Positions 1,044-56,471 of a stretch of DNA of 64,000 bases are shown here, piece after piece. Source of the stretch: an uncultured Candidatus Saccharibacteria bacterium (lineage in GTDB: Bacteria; Patescibacteriota; Minisyncoccia; Phycocordibacterales; UBA1006); the NCBI GenBank assembly GCA_964464735.1, contig CAYXKF010000001.1, positions 35,690-99,689 on the forward strand, written 5' to 3'. How positions within the stretch are numbered: the stretch's first letter is position 1; each line of letters starts with the position of its first letter. Under the pieces are notes generated by a model. That model did not search any database. It was not told where the DNA came from and saw only the letters and a program-made list of their open reading frames with translations. The position numbers and the translations under genes were made by a program.

Positions 1044-2720
1044 ATGAGTTCTGATATACTTTCTTCTATGAATCAATGCCAAAAGTGCCAAGCGCAATTC
1101 GAGATTACTGCCGACGATAATGCTTTTTATGAAAAAATGGGCGTGCTTGCTCCAACGCTATGCCCCAAATGCCGCGCGCAGCTGCGTTTAAGTTTTCGCA
1201 ATGAACGGGTGTTTTACAAGCGCGTTTGCGACCGTTGTCAAAAGCCGACCATTAGCATGTTTAGCCAAAACAAGCCGTATCCGGTGTGGTGCTATGACTG
1301 CTGGTGGGCGGACGATTGGGATCCTTCGGTATATGGGCAAGACTACGATCCGTCGCGTCCGTTTTTTGAACAATTTAAAAACCTGTATGCACGCGTTCCA
1401 AAGCCGGCGCTTGTTTCGATGCGCGGGGTGAACTGTGAATATTTAAATTATGCAGCCGACAATAAAAACTGCTATATGATTGTTGAAAGTTCGAATAATG
1501 AAGATTGCATTCATTGTTATTGGATCCAGCTTTCAAATAATTTGGTTGATTGTTCGTTTACCAATAAGGTTGAACTTTCGTATGAAAGCGATGATTGCTA
1601 CGATTCGTTTCGCTTACAGTATTGCCGAGGCTGCCACAGCTGCACCGACAGTTACTTTTTATTGAATTGCCGCGGATGTGCCAATTGTGTCGGATGTACC
1701 AACCTTCGTCAAAAGCAATACTGTATTTTTAATGAACAATATTCGAAAGCAGAATACGAAGAAAAACTAAAGTCATTTGGGTTTGATACGACAAGCGGTG
1801 TTGAACAATTTCGTAAACAATTTAATGAATTTGTAAAAAAGCAGCCGCGAAAATATGCCGAAATAACCAATGCGGTTAATTCGACTGGAAACTACATGGT
1901 GAATATAAAAAATAATAAAAACTGTTTTCATTCGTACGATGCCGAAGATAATGTGTATTGCGTGCATGCATGGCGCGGAGCGAAAGATTGCATGGATTGC
2001 AATACGGTAGGGCGCAATGCCGAAAAAATGTACAACACTTTAAATACCGGAATCGACGTGTCCAACTGCATTGGCTGTAGCGTTTGCTGGGGTTCGACTT
2101 TTATGACGTATTGTGTTAATTGCCCAAGCTCGGCAAACTGTTTTGGGTGCGTCGGCATGCGTACCAAAAAGTATGCCATTTTAAATAAACAGTATTCGCC
2201 CGAAGAATATGAAAAATTAAAAGCCCAGATTGTCAGTGACATGAAAGCCCAGGGTGTTTACGGTGATTTTATTCCAAAAGATGTTTCGGCATTTGGGTAT
2301 AACGAATCTTCGGCGGCAATTGAATTTCCGCTTTCTAAAGACGAAGCACTTGCCCAAGGGTTTAAATGGGAGGATACGCCGCGGGGGACATACGACAAAG
2401 AAACCAAACAGTGGAACGATGTTCCTGATTCGATCAACGACATTACTTTTAATGTTGTTCCTGAAATTTTTACCTGCACAAACTGCACCAAAAATTACAA
2501 AATTATTGCAAACGAACTTGCATTTTATAAACGCCTTAATATCCCACTTCCGCAATGTTGCCCAGATTGTCGTCATGAACGGCGACTAAAGGCGCGCGGG
2601 CCAAACGAACTACATACGCGCAGCTGTTCAAACTGCAATGCTTTGGTGCAAACGTCGTATTCAGAAACCGATGTCCCGATTGTGTATTGTGAAGCATGCT
2701 ATAACCAAGCGTTTGCATAA
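1044..2720 (+). CDS. large cysteine-rich protein with terminal zinc-ribbon domains and an internal duplication (function unknown)
   Basis: 558-aa ORF with more than 60 Cys, mostly in CxxC pairs. The N-terminal ~80 aa and C-terminal ~80 aa are homologous, sharing the pattern AFY[EK][KR].....CP.CR...RL..RN. Two ~120-aa internal repeats both end in NLRQKQYCIFNEQYSKAEYEEKLK and MRTKKYAILNKQYSPEEYEKLK. Confidence 0.7.
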   Translation: MSSDILSSMNQCQKCQAQFEITADDNAFYEKMGVLAPTLCPKCRAQLRLSFRNERVFYKRVCDRCQKPTISMFSQNKPYPVWCYDCWWADDWDPSVYGQDYDPSRPFFEQFKNLYARVPKPALVSMRGVNCEYLNYAADNKNCYMIVESSNNEDCIHCYWIQLSNNLVDCSFTNKVELSYESDDCYDSFRLQYCRGCHSCTDSYFLLNCRGCANCVGCTNLRQKQYCIFNEQYSKAEYEEKLKSFGFDTTSGVEQFRKQFNEFVKKQPRKYAEITNAVNSTGNYMVNIKNNKNCFHSYDAEDNVYCVHAWRGAKDCMDCNTVGRNAEKMYNTLNTGIDVSNCIGCSVCWGSTFMTYCVNCPSSANCFGCVGMRTKKYAILNKQYSPEEYEKLKAQIVSDMKAQGVYGDFIPKDVSAFGYNESSAAIEFPLSKDEALAQGFKWEDTPRGTYDKETKQWNDVPDSINDITFNVVPEIFTCTNCTKNYKIIANELAFYKRLNIPLPQCCPDCRHERRLKARGPNELHTRSCSNCNALVQTSYSETDVPIVYCEACYNQAFA

Positions 2721-2757
2721 ATAAAAGAGGCCGCGTTTGAGCGGTCCCTGTTTGTAA

Positions 2758-3192
2758 CTAATTATGATGAGGTGTGAATTTTTGGGTTTTTGCAAAAAAG
2801 ATTACTGCTAAGAATATCCATATTGCAGTCGTAGTCTCTGTCCATAGTTCGAACATGCAGCAGTTTTGGTGTGGCAAAATAAAGTAGAATATCCATTTTG
2901 TGGACGGTAAAGCAAAAACAGCACAAAGAAACAAAGTTTCCTTATTGGATGTTTTTAGGTCGTTATCTTTTACTACTCTTTTTTGAAATAAGTACAAGAA
3001 TACGATTGACATGAACATATAAGTGAATGGTTGAAGCAAAAGGGGAAAGTTGCTTAGTTGCCGTGGATCTATACTGAATAGATATCCGAACGTAAGTACA
3101 TTTATTACAGCAATAATAACTCCCGCTTTCCAATGAAATATGAGCTTGCCAGCTCGCAATAAGAAGTCTGACGGTATTTTCTTGGGCACCAT
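2758..3192 (-). CDS. hypothetical membrane protein
   Basis: 144-aa ORF with 3-4 predicted TM helices, convergent with the upstream gene. Confidence 0.4.
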   Translation of the reverse strand: MVPKKIPSDFLLRAGKLIFHWKAGVIIAVINVLTFGYLFSIDPRQLSNFPLLLQPFTYMFMSIVFLYLFQKRVVKDNDLKTSNKETLFLCAVFALPSTKWIFYFILPHQNCCMFELWTETTTAIWIFLAVIFFAKTQKFTPHHN

Positions 3193-3291
3193 AAGTAGTT
3201 TTTGTTTTTTACATTAGCTTGCTATGAGCAGTGTGTCAACCCTACACGTATATACTCGCGTCTTTTATGAAAATGTGTATAATCTTTTTTC

Positions 3292-3576
3292 ATGGACGCA
3301 CAGCAGATAAAACATTTTGCACGCCTTGCGCGCATTGGTGTAACCGATACCGAAGCCGACAGTTTGGCGCGTGACGTTAGTCGCATTCTTGAATTTGTTG
3401 ATACGCTGCAAAAGATCGTGCCCGACCAGTCGTATTTAAGCGCAGTCAATCATACGCATGTCGACACTAATCATGTGCGCGATGATGTTCCGCTTGATTC
3501 GGATGCCGCGGTCGATATCGTAAACGGTTTTCCTAAATCAGTAAAAGGGATGCTTAAGGTTCCTAAAGTTTTGTAA
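3292..3576 (+). CDS. gatC: Asp/Glu-tRNA amidotransferase subunit C
   Basis: 94 aa, MDAQQIKHFARLARIGVTDTEADSLARDVSRILEFVDTLQ matches the GatC family. It sits immediately upstream of gatA. A TATAAT box lies at ~3278-3283 just upstream. Confidence 0.8.
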   Translation: MDAQQIKHFARLARIGVTDTEADSLARDVSRILEFVDTLQKIVPDQSYLSAVNHTHVDTNHVRDDVPLDSDAAVDIVNGFPKSVKGMLKVPKVL

Positions 3577-3577
3577 T

Positions 3578-4981
3578 ATGGATATCGACTTATCACAACT
3601 AACCATTGCAAAGGCACACGAGATGCTGGTTGCAAAGCAGATCACGCCCAAGCAATTAATCGAAGCGTACAAGGCCGAGATTGCAAAACGTAATCCAGGG
3701 GTTAATGCATTTTTGGAAGTGTTTGACGATCCGATTCCAACCGAGGTTGATCCCGACAAGCTGCTTTCGTGTATTCCCATCGCATTGAAAGATAATATTT
3801 TAATGCAAGGCCACATTGCAAGCGCTTCATCGAAGATGCTTGAGCATTATGTTGCGCCGTATGATGCAACAGTGGTTAAAAAATTAAAAGAAGCGGGCGC
3901 ATACATTATTGGCCGTACGAACATGGATGAATTTGCGATGGGAAGTTCGACCGAAACGTCGGCATACGGCGTTACCAAAAACCCGATCGACGAATCGCGC
4001 GTTCCCGGCGGATCAAGCGGTGGCGCCGCTGCGGCTTTGGCGATGAATGGAGCATTAGGTGCTTTGGGTACCGACACAGCCGGTTCGGTTCGCCAACCAG
4101 CGGGCTTTTGCGGTGCGGTAGGGTTGTATCCGACCTATGGATCCGTTTCGCGCTATGGCGCAATTGCCATGGGTTCGTCGCTTGACCAGGTTGGTCCTAT
4201 TACCAAGACCGTCGAGGACTGTGAAATACTTTTTAATGCAATTAGTGGTTACGATGCGCACGACGCAAATTCACTTTCGACCGAAACACGCCTTCGTATG
4301 GCAAGCCGCCCGATGGGCAAGCGCATTGGTGTTCCGACCGAGGTGCTTGAAAAAGACGGTATCGACCCCGATGTGCGTGCAAACTTTAACGAATCAATCG
4401 AAAAGATGAAGGCGCTGGGTTACGAAATCGTGCCGATCTCGCTCCCGCATATTTTTTATTCGCTTCCGGCGTACTACATTATTATTCCGGCCGAAGTGTC
4501 ATCAAATCTGGCACGTCTTGACGGGCTTCGCTATGGCACTGCAGCGCCCGAAGGAATGGACCTGTTTAATTCGTATCTTGAAAGCCGTGAACAGGGGTTT
4601 GGTGCCGAAGTAAAACGCCGCATCATTTTAGGGACATATATTTTATCGTCAGGCCACTACGAATCATATTACGCACTTGCGCAGCATATCCGGTCGCTTA
4701 TTACCGACGACTTTGTAAAGGCGTTTGAAAAAGTTGATATCATTGCGACACCGACTTCGCCAACAACCGCATTTAAGATCGGCGAAAAACAAGATCCAGT
4801 ATCAATGTATCTTGCCGATATCTTTACGGTACCTGCCGACTTGGCCGGAATCCCAGCAATTGCGATTCCATCAGGAAAGGATGCAAATGGCCTGCCGTAT
4901 AGCATGCACTTTAATGCACCGCATGGATGCGAACAATATTTGTTTGACGTTGGAAAAGATTTTGAAAGCGTTGTACAATAA
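3578..4981 (+). CDS. gatA: Asp/Glu-tRNA amidotransferase subunit A (amidase signature family)
   Basis: 467 aa with the amidase signature GGSSGGAAAALA and the N-terminal MDIDLSQLTIAKAHEMLVAKQITPKQL typical of GatA. It overlaps the gatC stop by 1 nt. Confidence 0.9.
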   Translation: MDIDLSQLTIAKAHEMLVAKQITPKQLIEAYKAEIAKRNPGVNAFLEVFDDPIPTEVDPDKLLSCIPIALKDNILMQGHIASASSKMLEHYVAPYDATVVKKLKEAGAYIIGRTNMDEFAMGSSTETSAYGVTKNPIDESRVPGGSSGGAAAALAMNGALGALGTDTAGSVRQPAGFCGAVGLYPTYGSVSRYGAIAMGSSLDQVGPITKTVEDCEILFNAISGYDAHDANSLSTETRLRMASRPMGKRIGVPTEVLEKDGIDPDVRANFNESIEKMKALGYEIVPISLPHIFYSLPAYYIIIPAEVSSNLARLDGLRYGTAAPEGMDLFNSYLESREQGFGAEVKRRIILGTYILSSGHYESYYALAQHIRSLITDDFVKAFEKVDIIATPTSPTTAFKIGEKQDPVSMYLADIFTVPADLAGIPAIAIPSGKDANGLPYSMHFNAPHGCEQYLFDVGKDFESVVQ

Positions 4982-5023
4982 ACGCATTGCATTTGTGCCA
5001 CAGGCACATTAACGCAAAACCAC

Positions 5024-5659
5024 ATGTTCGAAGGCGTCCGATTTTTGAATGTCGAATATTTTTTTAACAAGATCGCTGATTTTTTTGCGACTGTTTTTGG
5101 TTATTTGTTTGGCCGTACTTCGGGGGGTACCGTTGATGTGTATCACCGCGGATCAGATGGCCTGCTGGAAGTTTCGCGCAGCAGTGGGCAAGGGTATCAT
5201 ATTTTCTTATTTATCGTCGGCTTTATTGCGCTGATGATGATCATTTATTATTTGTACCTTTCGTACGAAATCCGCCAGATGGAAGTCGAGCATGTAAACC
5301 ATTGGCATGCGCCCGAAACGCACCGCACACAGTCGGCCAATCCGCGCCTTCAGCGATGGGAGAAAGTCGTAGGATTATTCAATTCGTCCGACCATACGCA
5401 GTGGCGTCTTGCTATTATTGAAGCTGACACTATGTTAGAGGAATTAATGGAATATCTAGGTTTTGATGGTACTAATTTAGGTGAACGGCTTAAATCGGCA
5501 TCGGTGCGTGTTTTTCCACCGCTTCAAGACGCATGGGAAGTACATAATTTACGTAATCGCTTGGCGCACGAAGGACTTACCTACGACCTGCAGCAAGACG
5601 AAGCAATGCGCGCGCGCAAGATCTACGAAAACCTGTTTCGGGGGTATAATTTTATTTAG
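5024..5659 (+). CDS. membrane-anchored protein with a C-terminal HEPN-like (Rx4H, DUF4145-like) domain
   Basis: 211 aa with one strong TM helix (YHIFLFIVGFIALMMIIYYLYL). The C-terminal helical region WRLAIIEADTMLEEL...AWEVHNLRNRLAHEG contains an R-x4-H motif in the arrangement seen in HEPN/DUF4145 domains. The exact start is uncertain. Confidence 0.5.
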   Translation: MFEGVRFLNVEYFFNKIADFFATVFGYLFGRTSGGTVDVYHRGSDGLLEVSRSSGQGYHIFLFIVGFIALMMIIYYLYLSYEIRQMEVEHVNHWHAPETHRTQSANPRLQRWEKVVGLFNSSDHTQWRLAIIEADTMLEELMEYLGFDGTNLGERLKSASVRVFPPLQDAWEVHNLRNRLAHEGLTYDLQQDEAMRARKIYENLFRGYNFI

Positions 5660-5721
5660 CACTAAGTCGCTGCTGCTTGCGCATTTGGTTATTTTCGGTA
5701 TAGTAGTTCGGTTCACTTTAT

Positions 5722-5792
5722 AGCGGGGTGGAGTAATGGTAGCTCACCGGGCTCATAACCCGGGGGTGCCCGTTCGAATCGGGCCCCCGCAA
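5722..5792 (+). tRNA. tRNA-fMet (initiator, anticodon CAU)
   Basis: Cloverleaf folded by hand. The anticodon loop is CUCAUAA. Three consecutive G:C pairs at the base of the anticodon stem (GGG/CCC), A11:U24, and a mismatched 1:72 pair (A.A) are initiator hallmarks. The T-loop is TTCGAAT. CCA is not encoded. Confidence 0.8.
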
Positions 5793-5845
5793 CACGATCA
5801 TATTTTCTCGTTGATTTTTTGCCCCGCTTAGGGTATCTTTCTCGT

Positions 5846-5922
5846 GTCGGGGTAGCTCAGTTGGTTAGAGCGTAGCACTCATAAAGCTAAGGTCGGCGGT
5901 TCGATCCCGCCCCTCGACACCA
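5846..5922 (+). tRNA. tRNA with CAU anticodon (elongator Met or lysidine-modified Ile2); 3' CCA encoded
   Basis: Hand-folded with acceptor GTCGGGG/CCTCGAC containing one G.U pair, D-arm GCTCAGTTGGTTAGAGC, anticodon loop CTCATAA, T-arm GGCGGTTCGATCCCGCC, and ACCA at the 3' end. Confidence 0.8.
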
Positions 5923-5976
5923 GCGGTGGATTTTTTGCATACGTATGCTAAGATGCGCCGGTACAATTACATAGAT

Positions 5977-6050
5977 GCAGTCGTAGCTCAACTGGTTAGA
6001 GCACCCGCCTGTCACGCGGGAGGTTGCGGGTTCGAGTCCCGTCGACTGCG
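5977..6050 (+). tRNA. tRNA-Asp (anticodon GUC)
   Basis: Acceptor GCAGTCG/CGACTGC, anticodon loop CTGTCAC, T-arm GCGGGTTCGAGTCCCGT, discriminator G. Confidence 0.85.
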
Positions 6051-6057
6051 CAGAAAG

Positions 6058-6090
6058 CAAAAACAGCCACCTGAAAAGGGCTGTTTTTGC
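6058..6090 (+). terminator. Rho-independent terminator after the tRNA-Asp cluster
   Basis: Hairpin aaCAGCC-acctgaaaag-GGCTGtt followed by TTTTTG. Confidence 0.6.
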
Positions 6091-6132
6091 GTATGGTCGT
6101 TATCCTGAATTTTAAAAATATGGTATTCTGGC

Positions 6133-6720
6133 ATGATGGAAGGAGTGATTCTATTTGCACAGCAAGTAAAACCGATCGTCATAATTATTCATGCGATAGC
6201 AGGCGCAATTGCGTTGGGTGCAACAACCGTTACCGACTATCTTTTTTTTCAATTCCTTAAGGATCTTAAAATCACGGTGCGCGAATCACAGACCCTTGCG
6301 CTGCTATCGAACATTTTGTGGACGGCGCTTGCAATACTGATCGTCTCGGGCTGTTTATTATTTTTAAGCGACATTGCGCGGTATTCGCACAGCAGCAAGT
6401 TTTTGGTTAAATGTGTCGTCGTGGGGGTCATTGCGATCAATGGATATATTTTGCACCGCGTCGTTACACCGCGCATGATCCAGCTTGATTTCATTACGCG
6501 CGCGCATCGTGATAACCACGTCGCACTCAAACGCTTAGCCTTTGCATGCGGAGGCGTCTCGGTCTTTTCGTGGTACTTGGCATTTGTGCTGGGCATGCTT
6601 GCGCGGATTGCGATGCCATTTTGGATATTGGTTGTCATCTACGCAATCGCGCTCGTCGGTATTATGTTAACGGGGCAGGTGGTCTATTGGTACTATCATC
6701 GACGCGCTCCAAAAGCATAA
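6133..6720 (+). CDS. hypothetical polytopic membrane protein
   Basis: 195 aa with 5-6 predicted TM helices. Confidence 0.45.
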   Translation: MMEGVILFAQQVKPIVIIIHAIAGAIALGATTVTDYLFFQFLKDLKITVRESQTLALLSNILWTALAILIVSGCLLFLSDIARYSHSSKFLVKCVVVGVIAINGYILHRVVTPRMIQLDFITRAHRDNHVALKRLAFACGGVSVFSWYLAFVLGMLARIAMPFWILVVIYAIALVGIMLTGQVVYWYYHRRAPKA

Positions 6721-6723
6721 TCT

Positions 6724-7557
6724 ATGAATCACGGGCCGCGTGTTCTTATTTTCTTAGTAACGTTGTGCATTATTGTTTTTTTAGCACAGCTGCGCGTTCC
6801 GATATCGCAGCCATCAGTGGCCGTGCCAATTGCACCAATTGACGAAGTGATTAAAAATACGACGCTGCCGTTGTATAAACGGTTCATGGTTTTGTCGCCG
6901 GTTTCGTTATACATGCAAACACATTTTAGCGACGGCGCAAAAAATCCTTGCCCAAAGCCCAAGCAGTTGTACTCGGACATGTTTTTTGCATTCGTCGATT
7001 TTACCCATGCGCTTCCAGATGGATATGTGCCTAATGACTTAGTTCCATTGCCATCACGTTTTGTAAAAAAGACTAGCGGTACGGTATGCATGCGCGCCGA
7101 GGCCGCAGACGCCATGATCGCGATGCTTACTGATGCGGCAAATTCACAACAGTCAATCGTTGTTTCGTCGGCATTTCGTTCGTCTGAAACGCAAGAGACA
7201 ATTTTAAATGAACGCTTAAACACCATCGGCGAAGCGGCGTATACCCATGTGGCGCTTCCGGGGCATTCGGAACACCAGCTGGGAACGACCGCCGACTTGG
7301 CGGCATTGTCGCTTAATTATTCCTCAGCCGCGCACGCATTTGGTGATTCGATCGAAGGAAAGTGGATTGCGGCGCATGCAGTCGAATATGGTTTTGTGCA
7401 AAGTTACCCATACGGAAAAGAGCCGATTACTGGCTACATTTACGAACCGTGGCATTACCGCTACGTTGGTTTACAAACTGCAAATGCGGTTGTTAATGCA
7501 AGCTTGACTTTGACTGAATATTTAAACCCTGAATTGCTATTAGGCCAACAAAATTGA
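6724..7557 (+). CDS. D-alanyl-D-alanine carboxypeptidase, VanY/peptidase M15B family
   Basis: Motifs SAFRSSETQETIL, GHSEHQLGTTADL and EPWHYRYVG match the VanY-type Zn D,D-carboxypeptidase signature. An N-terminal TM anchor is present. Confidence 0.8.
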   Translation: MNHGPRVLIFLVTLCIIVFLAQLRVPISQPSVAVPIAPIDEVIKNTTLPLYKRFMVLSPVSLYMQTHFSDGAKNPCPKPKQLYSDMFFAFVDFTHALPDGYVPNDLVPLPSRFVKKTSGTVCMRAEAADAMIAMLTDAANSQQSIVVSSAFRSSETQETILNERLNTIGEAAYTHVALPGHSEHQLGTTADLAALSLNYSSAAHAFGDSIEGKWIAAHAVEYGFVQSYPYGKEPITGYIYEPWHYRYVGLQTANAVVNASLTLTEYLNPELLLGQQN

Positions 7558-7619
7558 CAAAGTTTTTTAGCTGTTTCGTTTCCCCTTAGTCCATTACAAG
7601 AGGAGTATAATGAAAATAT

Positions 7620-8885
7620 ATGAAGACGACGTGGCAAAACCAACACGTGCCTACTGAGTCAGAATTGATGGGTAATCTTTTGACCGATGTCGTTATTGTG
7701 GGTGCAGGTGTTGCTGGAACCACGACAGCATATTTGCTTGCCCTGGCTGGCGTGCGCGCCATTGTGCTTGAAAAAGGCGAAATAGTGCAAAACTCGACGA
7801 CCGCCTACACGACCGGATTTTTAGTTTCTGATATTGATACCGACTTGGTTGACCTTATAAAAATATTTGGTGCCGAAAATGCAAAAACAATTTGGTCGTC
7901 GCATGCGCATGCAATTGATGCAATCGAACGTATTGTAAAAAAAGAAAAAATAGAATGCGAATTTATGCGCGCCGATGAATACTGGCTTGCAACATCAAAA
8001 AATTCAAGCAAGCAACTGCGCACCGAAGCGGCATTAGCGCGATCGTATGGTTTTAGTATTGCCGAAGTTCCGATTATGAACCCGTTTGGTTCTTTTGACA
8101 GCATACATGTGTTTAAAAATCAGGCAAAGTTTCATGCCATCAAATATTTGGCTGCGTTGCGCGAAGCGGCGATACAAAATGGGGCAGTGTTTTTTGATAA
8201 TACCGAAGTCGTGCAGATAAGCGGTGATGCACTGGTAACTGTTACTACTAGTGATGGTAAAAAAGTAACCGCACGGCATTTGGTTATTGCAACGTACGAA
8301 CCGTTTTATAACCCCTGGCGGCTGTTTGCCAAAAAGGGAATGTACGTTTCGTATGTTTACGAGTTGGCAGTGCCAAAGGCGGTAATTCCCGAAGGGTTGT
8401 ATCAAGATAGTCATAATCCGTATCACTACATGCGCGTCGACCAAATTGGCGGTGACGAGGATCGCATGATCATTGGCGGTGAAGACCGGCGCGAGGAACT
8501 GCCTGCGGCATTAAAAAAGAATTTTGCCGCACTCTTAAGTTATTTTGAAAAGCAATTTCCTGGTATCGCGTATCGCATCGTAACGCAGTGGGATGGACCG
8601 ATACTTGAATCGATCGATGGCATTGCGTTTATTGGATCATATTGCAATAAGCATCCTAATCGACACATTGCGACCGCGTTTTCGGGAAACGGTATGACCT
8701 ATGGCTATTTGGCAGGTGAAATTATTTCTGACGCTATTTTAGGAAACAAAAATCCATATGCAAAAATATATACTCCTATGCGCCGGCATATCACATTTTG
8801 GGGAATCGTTATAAAAACCCGCGATTACGTCGGTGAATTTTTTGGCGCGTATCTTAAAAACATTTTTAAGAAAAAGCATTCGTGA
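7620..8885 (+). CDS. FAD-dependent oxidoreductase (DAO/glycine oxidase-like)
   Basis: The Rossmann dinucleotide motif VVIVGAGVAGTTTAYLLA lies near the N-terminus, and the 421-aa length fits a DAO-type fold. The start could alternatively be the ATG at 7667. Confidence 0.7.
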   Translation: MKTTWQNQHVPTESELMGNLLTDVVIVGAGVAGTTTAYLLALAGVRAIVLEKGEIVQNSTTAYTTGFLVSDIDTDLVDLIKIFGAENAKTIWSSHAHAIDAIERIVKKEKIECEFMRADEYWLATSKNSSKQLRTEAALARSYGFSIAEVPIMNPFGSFDSIHVFKNQAKFHAIKYLAALREAAIQNGAVFFDNTEVVQISGDALVTVTTSDGKKVTARHLVIATYEPFYNPWRLFAKKGMYVSYVYELAVPKAVIPEGLYQDSHNPYHYMRVDQIGGDEDRMIIGGEDRREELPAALKKNFAALLSYFEKQFPGIAYRIVTQWDGPILESIDGIAFIGSYCNKHPNRHIATAFSGNGMTYGYLAGEIISDAILGNKNPYAKIYTPMRRHITFWGIVIKTRDYVGEFFGAYLKNIFKKKHS

Positions 8886-33901: not shown

Positions 33902-35281
33902 ATGGGCAAGCTCTCGACATTTCAATTAATACTGGGCGGCGTCTTTGTTGCTTTTATTATCATTGGATTTTTATATTTCACATCGGCGGGCAAAAAAAAT
34001 GCCAACGCGCCAAAAGGGCAATACAGCGGTACGGTCACTATTTGGAGCATCATTCCGCGCGAACTTATCCAGGCACCGATTGCAAAATTCCAAGCTGACA
34101 ACGAAGCGGTGCGCATCACGTACCGGCAAATTAACGAAAGCGAAATCACGGCCGAAGTCATTAACGCCTTAGCGCAAGGCACCGGGCCCGACATTTTGAT
34201 GTTTCCAGCCGAACGGTTAATCCAGCTGCGCGGTATCTTATACCCGATTTCATATGCCAACATTTCGCAGGACGTATTCATGCAAAAATTTATCGATGGC
34301 GCGTCGGTCTTAATGCAACCCGAAGGCATTTATGGGCTGCCCGTTTTGGTTGACCCGATGGTCATGTATGTGAACCGTGATATTTTAAATAGTACATTTA
34401 TTGCAAACGCTCCGCAGTATTGGGACGAATTTCCTAATTTGGTACCAAATGTTACGCAAAAAAATAATGCCGGACTTATTACCCGTTCGACTGTGGCACT
34501 TGGCTTTCCGTTAAATATCAGTCATGTTGCCGACATTATGACCGCGCTTTTCATGCAGTTGGGCAGCACCATGGTTGCAACGGATGATTTTGGCGAAACG
34601 GGCGGGGGGATCCAATACCGCCTTGCACTTCGTGGGCCGGGCAAATTTAGTGCGCGCCCTATTGCCGACGCGTTTGAATACGCAGTTGCATTTTCGGATC
34701 CGGCAAAAACAACGTATACCTGGTCGGCAGGGCTTCCATTGTCACGCGACTATTTTGTGGGCGACCGGTTGCTTGCATACTTTGGATACGCCAGCGAATA
34801 TGGCATACTGCGTTCGCTTAATCCAAACCTAAACTTTTCGATCGAAATGCTGCCGCAGATGCGCGTCAGTTCAACCAAGGCGACTTTTGGAAAAATCTAT
34901 GCCTTGGGCATGACCAAAAAATCGCAAAATGTCGCTGCGTCATTCGCGCTGATGAACGCGATCGTGCAGCCTGATGTCATGCAGCCGGTTTATACTTCCA
35001 TGGGCTTGCCGCCGGTATTCAAGTCATCGCTTGCCGCCATGCCTAATGATCATCGTTCGACTGTCACGCGGCAGTCCGCCCTTATTACCAAGTCGTGGCT
35101 TAACCCGCTTGTTGAAGCATACGATACTACCGTTATTCAAAGTTTGCAGCGTGTCCTTTCGGGAGAATTGTCGCCTGCGCAAGTTGCCAACGAAATGGAC
35201 ACCGCACTTGCTCCGCTGTTCGATAGTGTTAACGAACAAAATGCTAAAAATGCTTCGGCTGCCGCCGCGGCAAAACAATAA
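33902..35281 (+). CDS. ABC transporter substrate-binding protein (family 1, sugar-type), orphan
   Basis: N-terminal anchor, then the periplasmic-binding-protein pattern (TIWSIIPRELIQAPIAKFQADN...GTGPDILMFPAERL). No permease or ATPase genes are adjacent. Confidence 0.75.
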   Translation: MGKLSTFQLILGGVFVAFIIIGFLYFTSAGKKNANAPKGQYSGTVTIWSIIPRELIQAPIAKFQADNEAVRITYRQINESEITAEVINALAQGTGPDILMFPAERLIQLRGILYPISYANISQDVFMQKFIDGASVLMQPEGIYGLPVLVDPMVMYVNRDILNSTFIANAPQYWDEFPNLVPNVTQKNNAGLITRSTVALGFPLNISHVADIMTALFMQLGSTMVATDDFGETGGGIQYRLALRGPGKFSARPIADAFEYAVAFSDPAKTTYTWSAGLPLSRDYFVGDRLLAYFGYASEYGILRSLNPNLNFSIEMLPQMRVSSTKATFGKIYALGMTKKSQNVAASFALMNAIVQPDVMQPVYTSMGLPPVFKSSLAAMPNDHRSTVTRQSALITKSWLNPLVEAYDTTVIQSLQRVLSGELSPAQVANEMDTALAPLFDSVNEQNAKNASAAAAAKQ

Positions 35282-35299
35282 GCTTTTGTCGTAAGGATC

Positions 35300-36592
35300 A
35301 TGTGGTATAATGCTTCTTACATGAATTTTGCCCAGGCCAAGACTATTACTGGCTATAACCAATTTTTTAAATGCATCATTATTGCGATCGCTTTTTTTAC
35401 TTGTTTCTTTTCGATCGCCTTGGTGTCGCATGCCGAAGGGGGAATTGTTTTTACTGGTGTCACCTTAAAACCCGATACCGCCGCGGCAAACGGAACGTAT
35501 ATTTTGTCAGGCAATCTTAAGCTGCTTAGTGGCAGTACAAATGGCACAAGCGCGCCCGTAGGCTTAACGCTTGTCGACTTGTCGACTGGCGGTACACAGA
35601 CGTCAGCGCTTGGTACATATACGGTTGGTGCCGCGGCTCCTTTTTCGGTCAAAGGGCTTACGGGTACTTCGTATCGCTTTAATCATTCAATAAATAACCA
35701 GACTGTTGCAGCGTTTACTATTATTTCGTACACCGGTCCTGCGGCAATGGCGCTTACCCCAACATATTCTGACGTAAAGCTCGAGGCCGATTCTGTCAAT
35801 CAGGGTAAATATATTTTGTCAGGAAAAATGAATCTAGCCGGCGGCACCGGTACTTTTCAGTTTACCTCGATCGAAACAAAGGGAACAGGTGAGACTGCTT
35901 TTGCGTCAAAAGCACAAACTGGATCACCAAGCTTTGGTGCTACAGCTGCGTTCAGTGTAAATAATTTAACTAAAACTTCGTACGAATGGTATCCAAAAGT
36001 TACCTATAATAATCAGGTGTATACTGTGGGAACTCCACAGACAATATCGGTTGGGGGAACGAACCAAGGTACCAATCCGCCAAACCAAAACCAGCAAAAT
36101 TCCCAAAATAATAATCAAAGTAATCCGACAACGCAAAATACCACACAAACGACTGTGGCCGGTGGCAACGGACTTTTTGATGAATTTAAAAATGGCCTTG
36201 TTCACTGCGGCCGAAAAGTTGCCGACCCGGCGCGGGGTATTACGACAAAGCCGTGCACATTTGACGACTTAATTATTTTGGCAAGCCGCATTATCCGCTT
36301 TGCGATGTATCTTATTGTAGTTGCAGCAGCGATCGTCGTTATATGGATCGGTTGGATTTACTTATCGGCAGGTGGCAATACCGAAAAGGTCGCCAAGGCA
36401 AAACATGCGGCAACCAGTTGGGTTATTGGCGTCGTGTTGGTCATGTGCGCTTGGCTAATTGTCAGTTTCGTATTGCGAAGTTTCTTAAGCAAAGAGTATC
36501 TTCAAAAGCATCCGAACGCATTATTGCTTGAAAAAGTGGATGACGCATCGACACAAAATAAATCATTACAAGACATTATTACCGGACAATAA
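35300..36592 (+). CDS. secreted beta-rich protein fused to a C-terminal VirB2/TrbC-like pilin hairpin
   Basis: Signal peptide, a ~300-aa Thr/Gly/Ser-rich repeat region, a Q/N-rich linker, then FDDLIILASRIIRFAMYLIVVAAAIVVIWIGWIYLSAGGNTEKVAKAKHAATSWVIGVVLVMCAWLIVSFVL. That tail is two TM helices separated by a short charged loop. The start may instead be the ATG at 35321. Confidence 0.6.
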   Translation: MWYNASYMNFAQAKTITGYNQFFKCIIIAIAFFTCFFSIALVSHAEGGIVFTGVTLKPDTAAANGTYILSGNLKLLSGSTNGTSAPVGLTLVDLSTGGTQTSALGTYTVGAAAPFSVKGLTGTSYRFNHSINNQTVAAFTIISYTGPAAMALTPTYSDVKLEADSVNQGKYILSGKMNLAGGTGTFQFTSIETKGTGETAFASKAQTGSPSFGATAAFSVNNLTKTSYEWYPKVTYNNQVYTVGTPQTISVGGTNQGTNPPNQNQQNSQNNNQSNPTTQNTTQTTVAGGNGLFDEFKNGLVHCGRKVADPARGITTKPCTFDDLIILASRIIRFAMYLIVVAAAIVVIWIGWIYLSAGGNTEKVAKAKHAATSWVIGVVLVMCAWLIVSFVLRSFLSKEYLQKHPNALLLEKVDDASTQNKSLQDIITGQ

Positions 36593-39906: not shown

Positions 39907-41016
39907 TTAAGTGTTAACTAATGATTGAACCCCAATTGCTCTTAATTGGCTTTGGGGAAGCATGTAGTTGAAAAGTGCCTTGTCGTCAACCTTACCGTTT
40001 TTGTCGGTAAATTCTGCGATAAGTAGTTTTGCAACTTCAGCTTCGCCTTCACCATGCTTGATGGCAATTTCTTTTTCTGTTTCTGCCTGCAGAAGCTTCT
40101 TCTTTAATATGGTTATTAAAAGAATTTCACGCAATAAATCACGAGTTGCTTCGTCGGAAGGGTTCATATACACAATAGCGGTATTATGAGTTTTGAATCC
40201 GAATTCAGCATCAAAACCTTGAGCTAGTTTCTTGTAGCTCTGATCTTCGATCATCTTTTTTCGCTCGTCGTCACTGTACGATTGGAAGGTGTAATTAAGT
40301 ATGTCGAATATCGGTGCGATTTTTACGCTGTCAGTACTAAGAAGCATTTCTGCCGTCTGGTCGTTTCCAAAATCACGCAAGGCAGGTTCGTACGAGGTAT
40401 GGAGTACCTGATAAAAACCACCTGGAGTGCCTGATTGAATACGATAGTCAGTAGATTCGATATCAGTGAGAATCATTACGTTGAACTTTGCGCCTTTCTC
40501 AAATAATTCCAATTCGTTGTAAAGTATCCCTACGTTAGTTATTTCTTCGCGAAGAATTCCAGGATCCAGTTTTTTTTCTATAAGTCTGGGTTTTTCGCCT
40601 TCCTGGGTTGAAGGAGGTATTTCCTGGTAACTTACAACTTCTTTTGAGCGGACGCCGGGCATCCAACTGCTGTAGCGATAAAGCTTAAGAAATTTGTTAA
40701 CGAATGATTCCTTTGGTAATTGCGCCAATTCATCAGGAGTAAGGTTGTCGAAAACTTTTCCTGAAGTGTGGATAAGCCGGCCTCTATGCCTACTTTCTCC
40801 AAGCACTCCAACGAATCTTCCGAATAGGGTATATACTACAACTTCTCCGGTTCTTTGTGGGCCCCGTCCCCAAAATATTTCTTTCGTCATCCCAAAAAGG
40901 TAGGCGAAAGGTAGTTCTAATGTAAGGAGGCTTTTTATAGCTTCAATGATGATTTTCCCTAAAGACCAGTCATTAGCTTGGGCCTCTTCGATGCGGTTTG
41001 GATTAATTTGATTCAT
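39907..41016 (-). CDS. hypothetical protein, possibly SPFH/band-7 (flotillin)-like
   Basis: 369 aa. N-terminal GEVVVYTLFGRFVGVLGESRHRGRLIH resembles the start of an SPFH domain. The C-terminal LQAETEKEIAIKHGEGEAEVAKLLIAEF resembles the flotillin/HflK EA-repeat helix. The assignment is tentative. Confidence 0.4.
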   Translation of the reverse strand: MNQINPNRIEEAQANDWSLGKIIIEAIKSLLTLELPFAYLFGMTKEIFWGRGPQRTGEVVVYTLFGRFVGVLGESRHRGRLIHTSGKVFDNLTPDELAQLPKESFVNKFLKLYRYSSWMPGVRSKEVVSYQEIPPSTQEGEKPRLIEKKLDPGILREEITNVGILYNELELFEKGAKFNVMILTDIESTDYRIQSGTPGGFYQVLHTSYEPALRDFGNDQTAEMLLSTDSVKIAPIFDILNYTFQSYSDDERKKMIEDQSYKKLAQGFDAEFGFKTHNTAIVYMNPSDEATRDLLREILLITILKKKLLQAETEKEIAIKHGEGEAEVAKLLIAEFTDKNGKVDDKALFNYMLPQSQLRAIGVQSLVNT

Positions 41017-45667: not shown

Positions 45668-46915
45668 TTGTTGCAAATCCTTCTCAAGATGAAAGCAAAA
45701 ATCTCACCAAACAACCCGCTTGATCCTTTTACTATGGATTATCATATCAATGTAATGTTGGCCATATCACTTTTGAATCGTTACAAAACACCATTGTACT
45801 TATGCAATGGGATACAACTCACCAATACGCTGTTTCATGTTGAAAACGGCGACGGCACGTTTAAACACGCCTTGCTGGAATTCCAGAACGCTGATATTGC
45901 CCACACCTGTGGCTCGTATTTAAAAAATGCATTTCCTGCTCATTTAAGCAAGTTGGTAGAAATGCCGGCTAATTCTGTTTCAAAAAAGGTTGGTATTATA
46001 ACCAACGGTACAGATTTAAGTGAGTATGAGTTTGTATTAGATACTGCTACCACAGAAACTACTACTCCGGCTATACTGCCGGAGGATGAGGATGAGCTTA
46101 CAATTTACGTACCATTAGAGGTACCCGAACAGACACCTATTAAAGAAGTTGCTGAAACAAAAATTGAAAAACAAATCGAAGAAAAATTAAATAACAAAAA
46201 TCAACAAACTGATATGAATAAGAATGCAAACATAAAGAAAGAAATTAGCGCGGTAATGCGTGAGCGTGAACTGAATGAGGGCGCCGACTATTCAATGACT
46301 GTCAAAGATAGTGATGGAGGCGCATATGCGGAAATTGCCCTTAAAGGAGGTGCTCAAAAGTTGGCTAACCTTGTTGTCCTATCACTTAAAAACAAAGGTT
46401 TGAAAGCTGTAAAGTTAAAAGGCACTAATACTATCAGCGTAGAGATTGTAAAAGGCGTAGAGGCAAAACCATCATCTTCTGTCAAAGGGGGTGATAAAAA
46501 AGCCGCTAAACAAAATAAGCCAATTCAGAAGCGCAAGTACGTTCGCAGGGTTGAAAAGCCTGTTGCTAAAAAAGTACCTGTTAAGGCTAAGGCAAAGACG
46601 GTAGTTGCAAAACCCTTAAAACCCCGTAAGGCTAAGACCGGTCTTAACTCTGATGCCCTAATCGAACAGATTTTCTGTTCGCTTGGCGAGGAAAAAGTTA
46701 AGGAGATTGCATTGGGTTTGGGATTTGAACTTTTAGATGAAACATCAGGTCAGCTTGATGCTGATACATTATTTGCCGTATTGAAGAAGAATAATTTAGC
46801 GATTGTTCCTGTAAATGAAGCAGTAACCGATGTAAAATTTACTGTAGCCAAAGGCTTTACCTACAAAGTAAATGCTGTTGGTACAAGAAAAATGAGAGAA
46901 CTGCTGAATGCATAA
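45668..46915 (+). CDS. hypothetical protein with lysine-rich histone-H1-like low-complexity segment
   Basis: About 410 aa. The central segment KPSSSVKGGDKKAAKQNKPIQKRKYVRRVEKPVAKKVPVKAKAKTVVAKPLKPRKAKTG is strongly basic. The start could be TTG 45668 or ATG 45689. Confidence 0.5.
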   Translation: MLQILLKMKAKISPNNPLDPFTMDYHINVMLAISLLNRYKTPLYLCNGIQLTNTLFHVENGDGTFKHALLEFQNADIAHTCGSYLKNAFPAHLSKLVEMPANSVSKKVGIITNGTDLSEYEFVLDTATTETTTPAILPEDEDELTIYVPLEVPEQTPIKEVAETKIEKQIEEKLNNKNQQTDMNKNANIKKEISAVMRERELNEGADYSMTVKDSDGGAYAEIALKGGAQKLANLVVLSLKNKGLKAVKLKGTNTISVEIVKGVEAKPSSSVKGGDKKAAKQNKPIQKRKYVRRVEKPVAKKVPVKAKAKTVVAKPLKPRKAKTGLNSDALIEQIFCSLGEEKVKEIALGLGFELLDETSGQLDADTLFAVLKKNNLAIVPVNEAVTDVKFTVAKGFTYKVNAVGTRKMRELLNA

Positions 46916-49710: not shown

Positions 49711-49713
49711 TTG

Positions 49714-50104
49714 TGGAGATGGAGGGTATCGAGCCCTCGTACATGCATGATAACCATGCAAATCTACGTGCGTGTTTTGTTTAGGTGCCTTTCGGCATTC
49801 CGCTGTATCTTGTCATTAAACAAACAAACAAGGCACAGTATGCTGCACTGATACGATGTTGCTTCGTGCAGAATAAGCAAAAAAGTACTTAGAAATTATC
49901 AAACACGGCCTGATATGTCTAAGTGCATATCAGCGTGCTCCAAGCGCTTAGGCTCGGGCGAAAGAAGCGAATCCAAAAAATGGAGACGCTACCGCAGTTT
50001 TAGATTTTGCACTAAAATGCTGTACGCGTATTTTGACGCGCGCGACGTACGCGAGCGGCACGCATTGCATGATTATGATCATCCATGGCATTCAATACAT
50101 CCCC
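49714..50104 (-). ncRNA. ssrA: candidate tmRNA (ssrA), divergent
   Basis: It lies 88 nt downstream of smpB on the same strand. The 5' GGGGATG pairs with the 3' CATCTCC to form a 7-bp acceptor stem with G3.U70 (the Ala identity element), discriminator A, and a T-arm GAGGG-CTCGATA-CCCTC. 5' and 3' proximal segments can pair to form P2 (CATGCA/TGCATG). The internal reading frame is UAGU-GCA AAA UCU AAA ACU GCG GUA GCG UCU CCA UUU UUU GGA UUC GCU UCU UUC GCC CGA GCC UAA, giving the tag AKSKTAVASPFFGFASFARA. The total length is 391 nt. The ORF-track ORF at 49915..50208 on the opposite strand is probably spurious. Confidence 0.6.
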
Positions 50105-56391: not shown

Positions 56392-56398
56392 TTTGCTG

Positions 56399-56471
56399 TG
56401 GGTGTGCATGGACTCGAACCATGGACCACCGAGGTATAAGCTCGGCGCTCTACCAACTGAGCTACACACCC
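56399..56471 (-). tRNA. tRNA-Ile with UAU anticodon (AUA decoder), unusual
   Basis: The reverse complement folds as GGGTGTG-TA-GCTCAGTTGGTAGAGC-G-CCGAG-CTTATAC-CTCGG-TGGTC-CATGGTTCGAGTCCATG-CACACCC with discriminator A. The anticodon loop CUUAUAC gives anticodon UAU. Confidence 0.75.

Follow-up and report, generated by a model that had tools for sequence, protein, structure and literature searches.

A Patescibacteria-wide family of membrane-anchored HEPN-like proteins encoded directly behind gatC and gatA

Here we describe a gene, referred to as X, that encodes a membrane-anchored HEPN-like protein in a 64,000-nucleotide stretch of DNA from an uncultured Candidatus Saccharibacteria bacterium (contig CAYXKF010000001.1, positions 35,690 to 99,689; hereafter the window). 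Gene X occupies positions 5024 to 5659 of the plus strand, starts with ATG, specifies a product of 211 amino acids (aa) and is present as a single copy in the window; it was taken from the list of open reading frames (ORFs) and is backed by homologues and by sequence clusters that carry its C-terminal domain. Upstream on the same strand lie gatC (3292 to 3576), the first gene of the unit, which encodes subunit C of the Glu/Asp-tRNA amidotransferase (Pfam GatC, 31.5 bits; cutoff, 23), and gatA (3578 to 4981), which encodes the amidase subunit (Pfam Amidase, E 1.2e-130) and whose stop codon is located 42 nucleotides (nt) before X. On the other side, a gap of 62 nt leads to three plus-strand tRNA genes called by both ARAGORN and Rfam, namely an initiator-like tRNA-Met(CAT) at 5722 to 5793, an elongator-like tRNA-Met(CAT) at 5846 to 5922 and a tRNA-Asp(GTC) at 5977 to 6051.

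The protein can be divided into four parts. Its N-terminal segment (aa 1 to 59, nt 5024 to 5200) carries a conserved FLN[LV]EYFFN helix in the alignment consensus, modelled at aa 10 to 29, and is predicted to be extracytoplasmic from the charge bias and the architecture of longer relatives described below. It is followed by a single strong transmembrane (TM) helix at aa 60 to 78 (nt 5201 to 5257; IFLFIVGFIALMMIIYYLY) with a mean Kyte-Doolittle hydropathy of 2.52 over 19 residues, which in the model is part of one continuous helix (aa 46 to 95) that runs on into the cytoplasm. A charged and poorly conserved juxtamembrane linker (aa 79 to 106, nt 5258 to 5341, from alignment and model) then connects to the C-terminal HEPN-like domain (aa 107 to 211, nt 5342 to 5656), which was delimited by an AlphaFold model, Foldseek and sub-threshold Pfam matches. 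Within this domain, an IIEAD motif in helix 2 (aa 131 to 135, nt 5414 to 5428) contains the acidic residues E133 and D135, and the predicted catalytic motif H174-x2-R177-N178-x2-A181-H182 (nt 5543 to 5569) lies near the end of helix 3, its R-x4-H core (R177-N-R-L-A-H182) being encoded at nt 5552 to 5569. A preliminary description of this locus, made from the DNA letters without database searches, had already pointed to the strong TM helix in the N-terminal part, to the R-x4-H and to a preceding helix; the TM helix is borne out and both stretches are present in X (VHNLRNRLAHEG, aa 173 to 184, and WRLAIIEADTMLEELMEYLG, aa 127 to 146, respectively). The helical C-terminal domain that it proposed also stands, with a size of about 105 aa instead of the suggested 90 or so.

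Relatives of X form a large family. We found 148 close homologues, all of about 190 to 220 aa, none of which carries a Pfam annotation, and those with a named source all belong to Patescibacteria. An exhaustive profile search with the C-terminal domain recovered 3,034 clusters at 50 % identity (2,161 with E <= 1e-10), in which the HEPN-like domain is always C-terminal and, wherever a taxonomic label is given, the label is Patescibacteria. Likewise, species-representative genomes contain at least 578 matching stretches, the best 80 of which are all titled Patescibacteria. R177, N178, A181 and H182 are invariant in an alignment of 50 sequences; when 345 family sequences with about 33 to 50 % identity to the window protein were aligned to a hidden Markov model of the domain, D135, W171, H174, R177, N178 and H182 were conserved at 100 % and E133 at 99.1 %. 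A lone R-x4-H in 211 residues could be due to chance, but its invariance in 345 divergent sequences argues that it is not, and the two residues on which the preliminary description had rested its proposal are thus retained in every one of these orthologues. Moreover, no confirmed relatives were detected in 2.9 million viral contigs and none in 72,556 plasmids searched with tblastn. The family is lineage-wide in Patescibacteria (Paceibacteria/Parcubacteria group) and vertically inherited. It is also unannotated, as judged from its sequences, no curated model reaching threshold, and we found no published description of it in the literature on HEPN, gatB or Patescibacteria.

By the published definition (Anantharaman et al., 2013; PMC3710099), a HEPN domain is an up-down bundle of four helices, the second and third of which are separated by an insert. 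Its R-x4-6-H motif lies where helix 3 ends or where the loop to helix 4 begins, the conserved R is directly followed by a polar residue (N, D or H), and helix 2 contributes another conserved acidic residue, typically within E-x3-[KR]. An AlphaFold model of the X domain on its own (pLDDT 94.9, pTM 0.87) shows helices at aa 107 to 119, 124 to 145, 167 to 186 and 191 to 207, which form a four-helix up-down bundle; a short additional helix (aa 152 to 158) separates the second of them from the third. R177 to H182 are placed in the C-terminal half of helix 167 to 186, matching the position of the HEPN motif, and the residue following the R is the fully conserved N178, as in active HEPNs; E133 and D135 are located in helix 124 to 145, where the motif reads IIEADxML and not the usual E-x3-[KR]. 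When this model was compared with the Protein Data Bank (PDB) using Foldseek, the top five matches were all HEPN structures (1wty, 2hsb, 2q00 chains A and B, and 1wwp), with a probability of 0.98, a TM-score of 0.60 and a root-mean-square deviation of 3.9 A for 2hsb; YutE, Csx1 and AbiV followed lower among the matches, and the full-length model gave the same picture. In profile scans of family members, HEPN_Swt1 matched half of the full-length sequences (25 of 50) and 15 of the 27 restricted to the domain, and was joined by RiboL-PSP-HEPN, DUF4145, Cthe2314, pEK499_p136, Apea and Hypoth_Ymh, which brings the HEPN-clan Pfam families to seven, and by four CARF-HEPN models in PADLOC. No clan other than HEPN recurred in these scans. 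The best matches of individual members were to DUF4145 (E 3.8e-5) and HEPN_Swt1 (E 3.6e-4), while scans with the single X sequence against Pfam, NCBIfam and PADLOC returned sub-threshold matches or none. The gathering threshold was reached neither for HEPN_Swt1 (PF18731) nor for DUF4145 (PF13643) or HEPN_STY4199, the last of which is absent from the three Pfam matches of the window protein; since all family matches are sub-threshold, we do not assign X to any named HEPN family. Searches of PDB sequences with X alone and with two profiles gave weak matches to SAS-6, to a designed TM protein and to an NAD(P)H-flavin oxidoreductase, which were rejected as chance. The preliminary label of a membrane-tethered HEPN-like protein is hence supported by the invariant motif, the fold and the profiles, in the sense that only HEPN-clan families recur, even if each match stays below its threshold. 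We believe that the domain very probably adopts a HEPN fold with an active-type motif, for which the evidence is convergent and yet short of proof.

The arrangement of the domain relative to the membrane is conserved as well. At least one TM helix precedes the HEPN-like domain in 98 % of family members, and in 88 % of members lysine and arginine are in excess (by a median of three residues) between the last TM helix and the HEPN domain compared with the opposite side, a bias that places the HEPN domain in the cytoplasm. Longer members of 300 to 696 aa consist of a short N-terminus, a first TM helix, SH3-like repeats (ERYWYVDFESGPDGWV) with weak matches to SH3_3, a second TM helix, the same linker and the HEPN domain; the number of tandem repeats between the two TM helices ranges from one to six in the long members P0199, P0146, P0173, P0185, P0167 and P0144 (for example, L012, 4001 to 6091). 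The position of these repeats between TM1 and TM2 likewise suggests that the segment before the last TM helix is extracytoplasmic and the HEPN domain cytoplasmic. We therefore predict that the short form of X is a single-pass protein with its N-terminus outside, an external part of about 59 aa and a cytoplasmic HEPN domain. The layout is sensor-like, with an external module, a TM helix plus stalk and a cytoplasmic effector. SH3-bearing forms of 484 and 696 aa are also found directly after gatA; the idea that long members (443 to 696 aa) represent GatA-X fusions was ruled out, as their extra part consists of the SH3-like ectodomain repeats.

The strongest association of X, and one that the preliminary description had not mentioned, is with gatCA. 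Eight relatives viewed individually (30 to 46 % identity) have X directly after gatC-gatA, often with ligA further upstream. To describe this context we used the 80 best loci from a collection with one genome per species, 77 of which had usable upstream sequence: gatA is located just upstream on the same strand in 75 of these 77 loci, separated from X by a median of 21 nt (interquartile range, 8 to 34 nt), with a gap of 60 nt or less in 71 of the 75 and an overlap in four loci. In one of the two exceptions (L084), an 840-aa ORF of unrecognised kind (1701 to 4223, plus strand) stands between gatA and a 364-aa SH3-bearing X in a high-GC relative; in the other (L064), a 176-aa X (5791 to 6321, plus strand) follows 61 nt after a class II Asp/Asn-tRNA synthetase-like gene (4368 to 5729, plus strand) and not after gatA. 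A related synthetase gene is found 2.3 kb downstream of X in L001, but this link was dropped because it was seen in only two of 92 loci. Judging from its spacing, X appears to be the third gene of a gatC-gatA-X unit that is expressed together with gatCA.

In this unit X fills the slot that gatB takes in the canonical gatCAB operon. We rejected the notion that X is GatB, a GatB replacement or a GatB remnant, since it has no GatB Pfam match and since a genuine gatB exists in L061, where the order is gatC-gatA-X-tRNA(Met, Asp, Met)-gatB (gatB at 7288 to 8757, plus strand; E 1.6e-92 to a GatB probe). This locus, in which X and the tRNA cluster seem to lie within an ancestral gatCAB operon, is the only one of 92 with gatB in its flank, and gatB was not found in the window. 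The genes around X in the window, namely those for a release factor (RF), ftsE, ftsX, pyrG, VanY and the tRNAs, are translation and division genes, and ligA, gatCA, X, the tRNAs, RF, ftsEX and pyrG constitute a syntenic block in the lineage.

The tRNA cluster that follows X was named fMet/Met/Asp in the preliminary description. All three genes are confirmed and the fMet label is reasonable, given that the first tRNA-Met is marked as initiator-like by its 1:72 mismatch (A1xA72) and its GGG:CCC anticodon stem. This initiator-like tRNA-Met has no encoded CCA, which is encoded in the second tRNA-Met. Across relatives, 57 of 65 loci (88 %) have a tRNA-Met no more than 1.5 kb downstream of X and 37 have the full Met-Met-Asp set, the tRNA genes being all in plus orientation in 32 loci, mixed in 16 and all in minus orientation in 9. 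The first tRNA-Met often flips alone and then converges with X, 3 to 90 nt from the X stop codon. Because the tRNA strand varies, it is the synteny that is conserved and not co-transcription with X.

Based on these observations, we propose that X is probably a membrane-tethered, possibly signal-gated and metal-independent endoribonuclease that is co-expressed with gatCA and has a housekeeping or stress role and not one in phage defence. Like other active HEPN enzymes, the C-terminal domain would act as an endoribonuclease without metal and would leave 2',3'-cyclic phosphate ends; by analogy with established HEPN enzymology (PMC3710099), H182 would act on the 2'-OH while R177 and N178 would stabilise the transition state. 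The TM and juxtamembrane or stalk helices might bring two HEPN domains together, both contributing to one active site on the cytoplasmic face of the membrane, and this activity may be gated from outside, as in Ire1 and RNase L, by the short conserved helix or, in long forms, by the SH3-like repeats. The position of X as third gene of the gatC-gatA-X unit, together with its vertical inheritance, points to RNA cleavage in a housekeeping or stress response. A more far-reaching version of this idea, which we consider rather unlikely, is that X constitutes the bacterial equivalent of Ire1. It would then be a sensor RNase that spans the membrane and occurs in all Paceibacteria-type Patescibacteria; its external segment would read the state of the envelope or contact with the host, its dimerised cytoplasmic HEPN domains would cut specific tRNAs or membrane-proximal mRNAs, and its co-expression with GatCA would tie the response to aminoacyl-tRNA supply.

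Several points weigh against the proposal of a membrane-tethered RNase. All profile and structure matches to HEPN lie below curated or significance thresholds; the window protein reaches 14.2 to 16.1 bits against HEPN_Swt1, for which the gathering score is 27.5, the Foldseek E-values are 0.19 to 0.5, with four-helix bundles of the cytochrome b562 type scoring little worse, and PDB sequence-profile searches with two profiles returned no HEPN protein. RNase activity, dimerisation and gating are all proposed by analogy with known HEPN enzymes. Membership in an operon rests on spacing, as promoter and terminator scans around X performed at chance level and were not used. Finally, the whole region is strongly syntenic, and linkage to gatCA may thus say little about function.

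If the sub-threshold scores are taken at face value, the domain could be a lineage-specific four-helix bundle that acquired R-x4-H by convergence or chance and serves an unrelated function; small up-down bundles match weakly to many structures, and cytochrome b562 variants fill much of the Foldseek list. We regard this as very unlikely, since seven HEPN-clan Pfam families and four CARF-HEPN models match the same segment, the first five Foldseek ranks are all HEPN structures, and the position of the motif, the polar residue after the R and the insert that follows helix 2 match the published definition, with conserved acidic residues present in helix 2 in a form other than the usual E-x3-[KR]. 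A HEPN fold need not imply catalysis, and X might instead be an inactive membrane scaffold or regulator that tethers GatCAB or another partner, or that binds a nucleotide via its R, N and H. Some HEPNs, such as nucleotidyltransferase-fused forms and Swt1, are indeed non-catalytic binding modules (PMC3710099), and the closeness of X to gatA, which goes as far as stop and start codons that overlap, is what one would expect of a stoichiometric partner. Non-catalytic HEPNs, however, typically lack R-x4-6-H (PMC3710099), whereas X combines R, N and H, invariant in 345 sequences, with an upstream acidic residue in the pattern of active HEPN RNases, and nothing points to an interaction between X and GatCAB; this makes an inactive scaffold unlikely in our view.

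The remaining alternatives accept an active enzyme and differ in its purpose. Conflict systems account for most bacterial HEPN proteins (PMC3710099), and the weak profile matches of the X family are to defence-associated HEPN families and CARF-HEPN models, so that X could be a stand-alone abortive-infection or toxin-type RNase of a defence or addiction module. Yet the family is very large, lineage-restricted and uniform in architecture, and X holds a fixed chromosomal place behind gatA in 75 of 77 loci from genomes distinct at the species level, among housekeeping genes for translation and cell division, with gatA upstream and tRNA genes downstream and not within restriction-modification, CRISPR or defence loci. 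In addition, it has no confirmed relatives in the viral contigs and none in the plasmids searched, and no adjacent or conserved overlapping ORF qualifies as an antitoxin candidate: the flanks of 42 and 62 nt are too short for a neighbouring partner gene, no small adjacent or overlapping ORF is conserved, and no alternative frame is consistently open across 80 loci, in agreement with the preliminary remark that an obvious antitoxin partner is missing. Fixed synteny, housekeeping neighbours and absence from mobile DNA mark X as a vertically inherited core gene and not as a mobile defence or addiction module, and the defence side of the preliminary suggestion of a stand-alone defence or stress RNase is accordingly not supported; we consider it highly improbable. 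The other suggestion is that X is directed at tRNA, cutting or processing the adjacent tRNA-fMet, -Met and -Asp or the tRNA-Asn and tRNA-Gln of the GatCAB pathway. Several HEPN RNases, among them PrrC, RloC and HepT, are tRNA-cleaving enzymes. X is accompanied within 1.5 kb by the tRNA-Met/Met/Asp cluster in 57 of 65 loci and preceded in 75 of 77 by gatCA, the products of which work on aminoacyl-tRNA; it follows an Asp/Asn-tRNA synthetase-like gene in L064, and in L061 gatB comes after X and the tRNAs. Set against this, the mixture of tRNA orientations leaves no conserved co-transcript, the synthetase association is confined to two of 92 loci, the whole block is syntenic so that adjacency may merely reflect low rearrangement rates, and a membrane anchor would be unexpected in an enzyme of tRNA maturation. 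The adjacency noted in the preliminary description is thus real, while its idea of a tRNA-processing factor is weakened by the tRNA genes often being on the opposite strand. We find a tRNA-directed role unlikely as an explanation in its own right, although the gatCA and tRNA context and the existence of tRNA-cleaving HEPNs make tRNA an attractive, if circumstantial, candidate substrate.

The membrane-tethered RNase that we favour has both precedents and differences among known systems. Architectures that combine TM helices with HEPN were predicted in 2013 in three groups, including a DUF4145-like form with TM and SH3 in Firmicutes, a DUF4145-like form with a WP-signature TM helix, and an Abi2/Swt1-type form in which an N-terminal helical region, one TM helix and HEPN are combined as in Salmonella STY4199-like proteins, and the authors proposed that membrane-associated HEPNs cleave RNA at the inner face of the membrane, possibly in a stimulus-dependent manner (Anantharaman et al., 2013; PMC3710099). 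X resembles these proteins in having an external or N-terminal segment, one or two TM helices and a cytoplasmic HEPN domain with an intact R-x4-H, as well as SH3-type ectodomains in some members. It differs in that the family stays under threshold in all of their curated models, and in that X is lineage-wide, vertically inherited and fixed behind gatCA, whereas those proteins are described as sporadic and associated with conflict or stress. A WP dipeptide, which would place X in the WP-signature DUF4145 group, occurs neither in aa 1 to 100 of X nor in the family consensus. Much like the layout predicted for X, Ire1 spans the membrane once and has its sensor on the side opposite its cytoplasmic HEPN-class RNase, and in the KEN domains of Ire1 and RNase L the residue after the R contributes to catalysis (PMC3710099). 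These eukaryotic HEPN RNases are activated by dimerisation, while for X we infer dimerisation and gating; X also has no kinase domain, its HEPN domain is not circularly permuted, unlike KEN, and it is far smaller (211 aa). HepT/MNT and the AbiD, AbiF and AbiV toxins share with X a small HEPN domain with R-x4-H, and HepT and AbiV are among its weak structural matches, but they are soluble, paired with an antitoxin or placed in defence loci, and patchily distributed, in contrast to the membrane-anchored X, which has no partner ORF and is absent from the viral contigs and plasmids.

For a core, non-conflict role there are two further points of comparison. RNase Y, a housekeeping endoribonuclease of Firmicutes, is a cytoplasmic enzyme with an N-terminal TM anchor, encoded by a core and vertically inherited gene, and it is analogous to X in function only: with about 520 aa, KH and HD domains and metal dependence, it has no relation to X in sequence or fold. 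Las1, in turn, is a eukaryotic housekeeping HEPN nuclease that processes ITS2 of pre-rRNA and thereby provides a precedent for such a role (PMC3710099; PMC10942766), although Las1 is a soluble protein that acts together with the kinase Grc3, whereas X is membrane-bound and has no such partner nearby.

The combination of a TM helix and a HEPN domain is therefore known already; what is new is an unannotated family with vertical inheritance throughout Patescibacteria and a fixed place behind gatC-gatA. Our analysis gives an anatomy to this family of about 3,000 clusters and corrects the defence-gene label that it would otherwise be likely to receive. Almost all that is known of bacterial HEPN RNases comes from conflict systems such as toxin-antitoxin, Abi, CRISPR accessory and restriction-modification systems, and the X family displays a different pattern, namely an invariant catalytic-type motif in a membrane-tethered protein that belongs to the core genome of a huge, uncultured lineage with reduced genomes and is encoded beside the genes of a tRNA-dependent amidotransferase. 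Should X be an active RNase, it could fill a gap in the RNA-decay, RNA-processing or stress-signalling activities of Patescibacteria; should the Ire1-like version hold, no HEPN RNase pathway with a core role outside conflict would have been described in bacteria before it, and it would offer a rare functional handle on episymbiont physiology. With a soluble domain of about 110 residues and two obvious sites for point mutations, X is an accessible target.

Other features of the window deserve brief mention. Directly after the tRNA-Asp gene, an ORF of 195 aa (6133 to 6720, plus strand) encodes what appears by eye to be a multi-pass membrane protein; together with ORFs at 1044 to 2720 (plus strand, 558 aa), 45668 to 46915 (plus strand, 415 aa) and 39907 to 41016 (minus strand, 369 aa), it has no Pfam match at E 1e-5. 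At 33902 to 36592 (plus strand), a gene for a solute-binding protein (SBP_bac_8) precedes an ORF of 430 aa that matches a type IV secretion system pilin domain at its C-terminus. A full-length tmRNA gene is located at 49711 to 50104 (minus strand; Rfam, 79.8 bits). UAU tRNA-Ile is uncommon in bacteria, where AUA is usually decoded by a lysidine-modified CAU tRNA; ARAGORN and Rfam both call a tRNA-Ile with the anticodon TAT (UAU) at 56398 to 56471 (minus strand), which may bear on AUA decoding in this organism.

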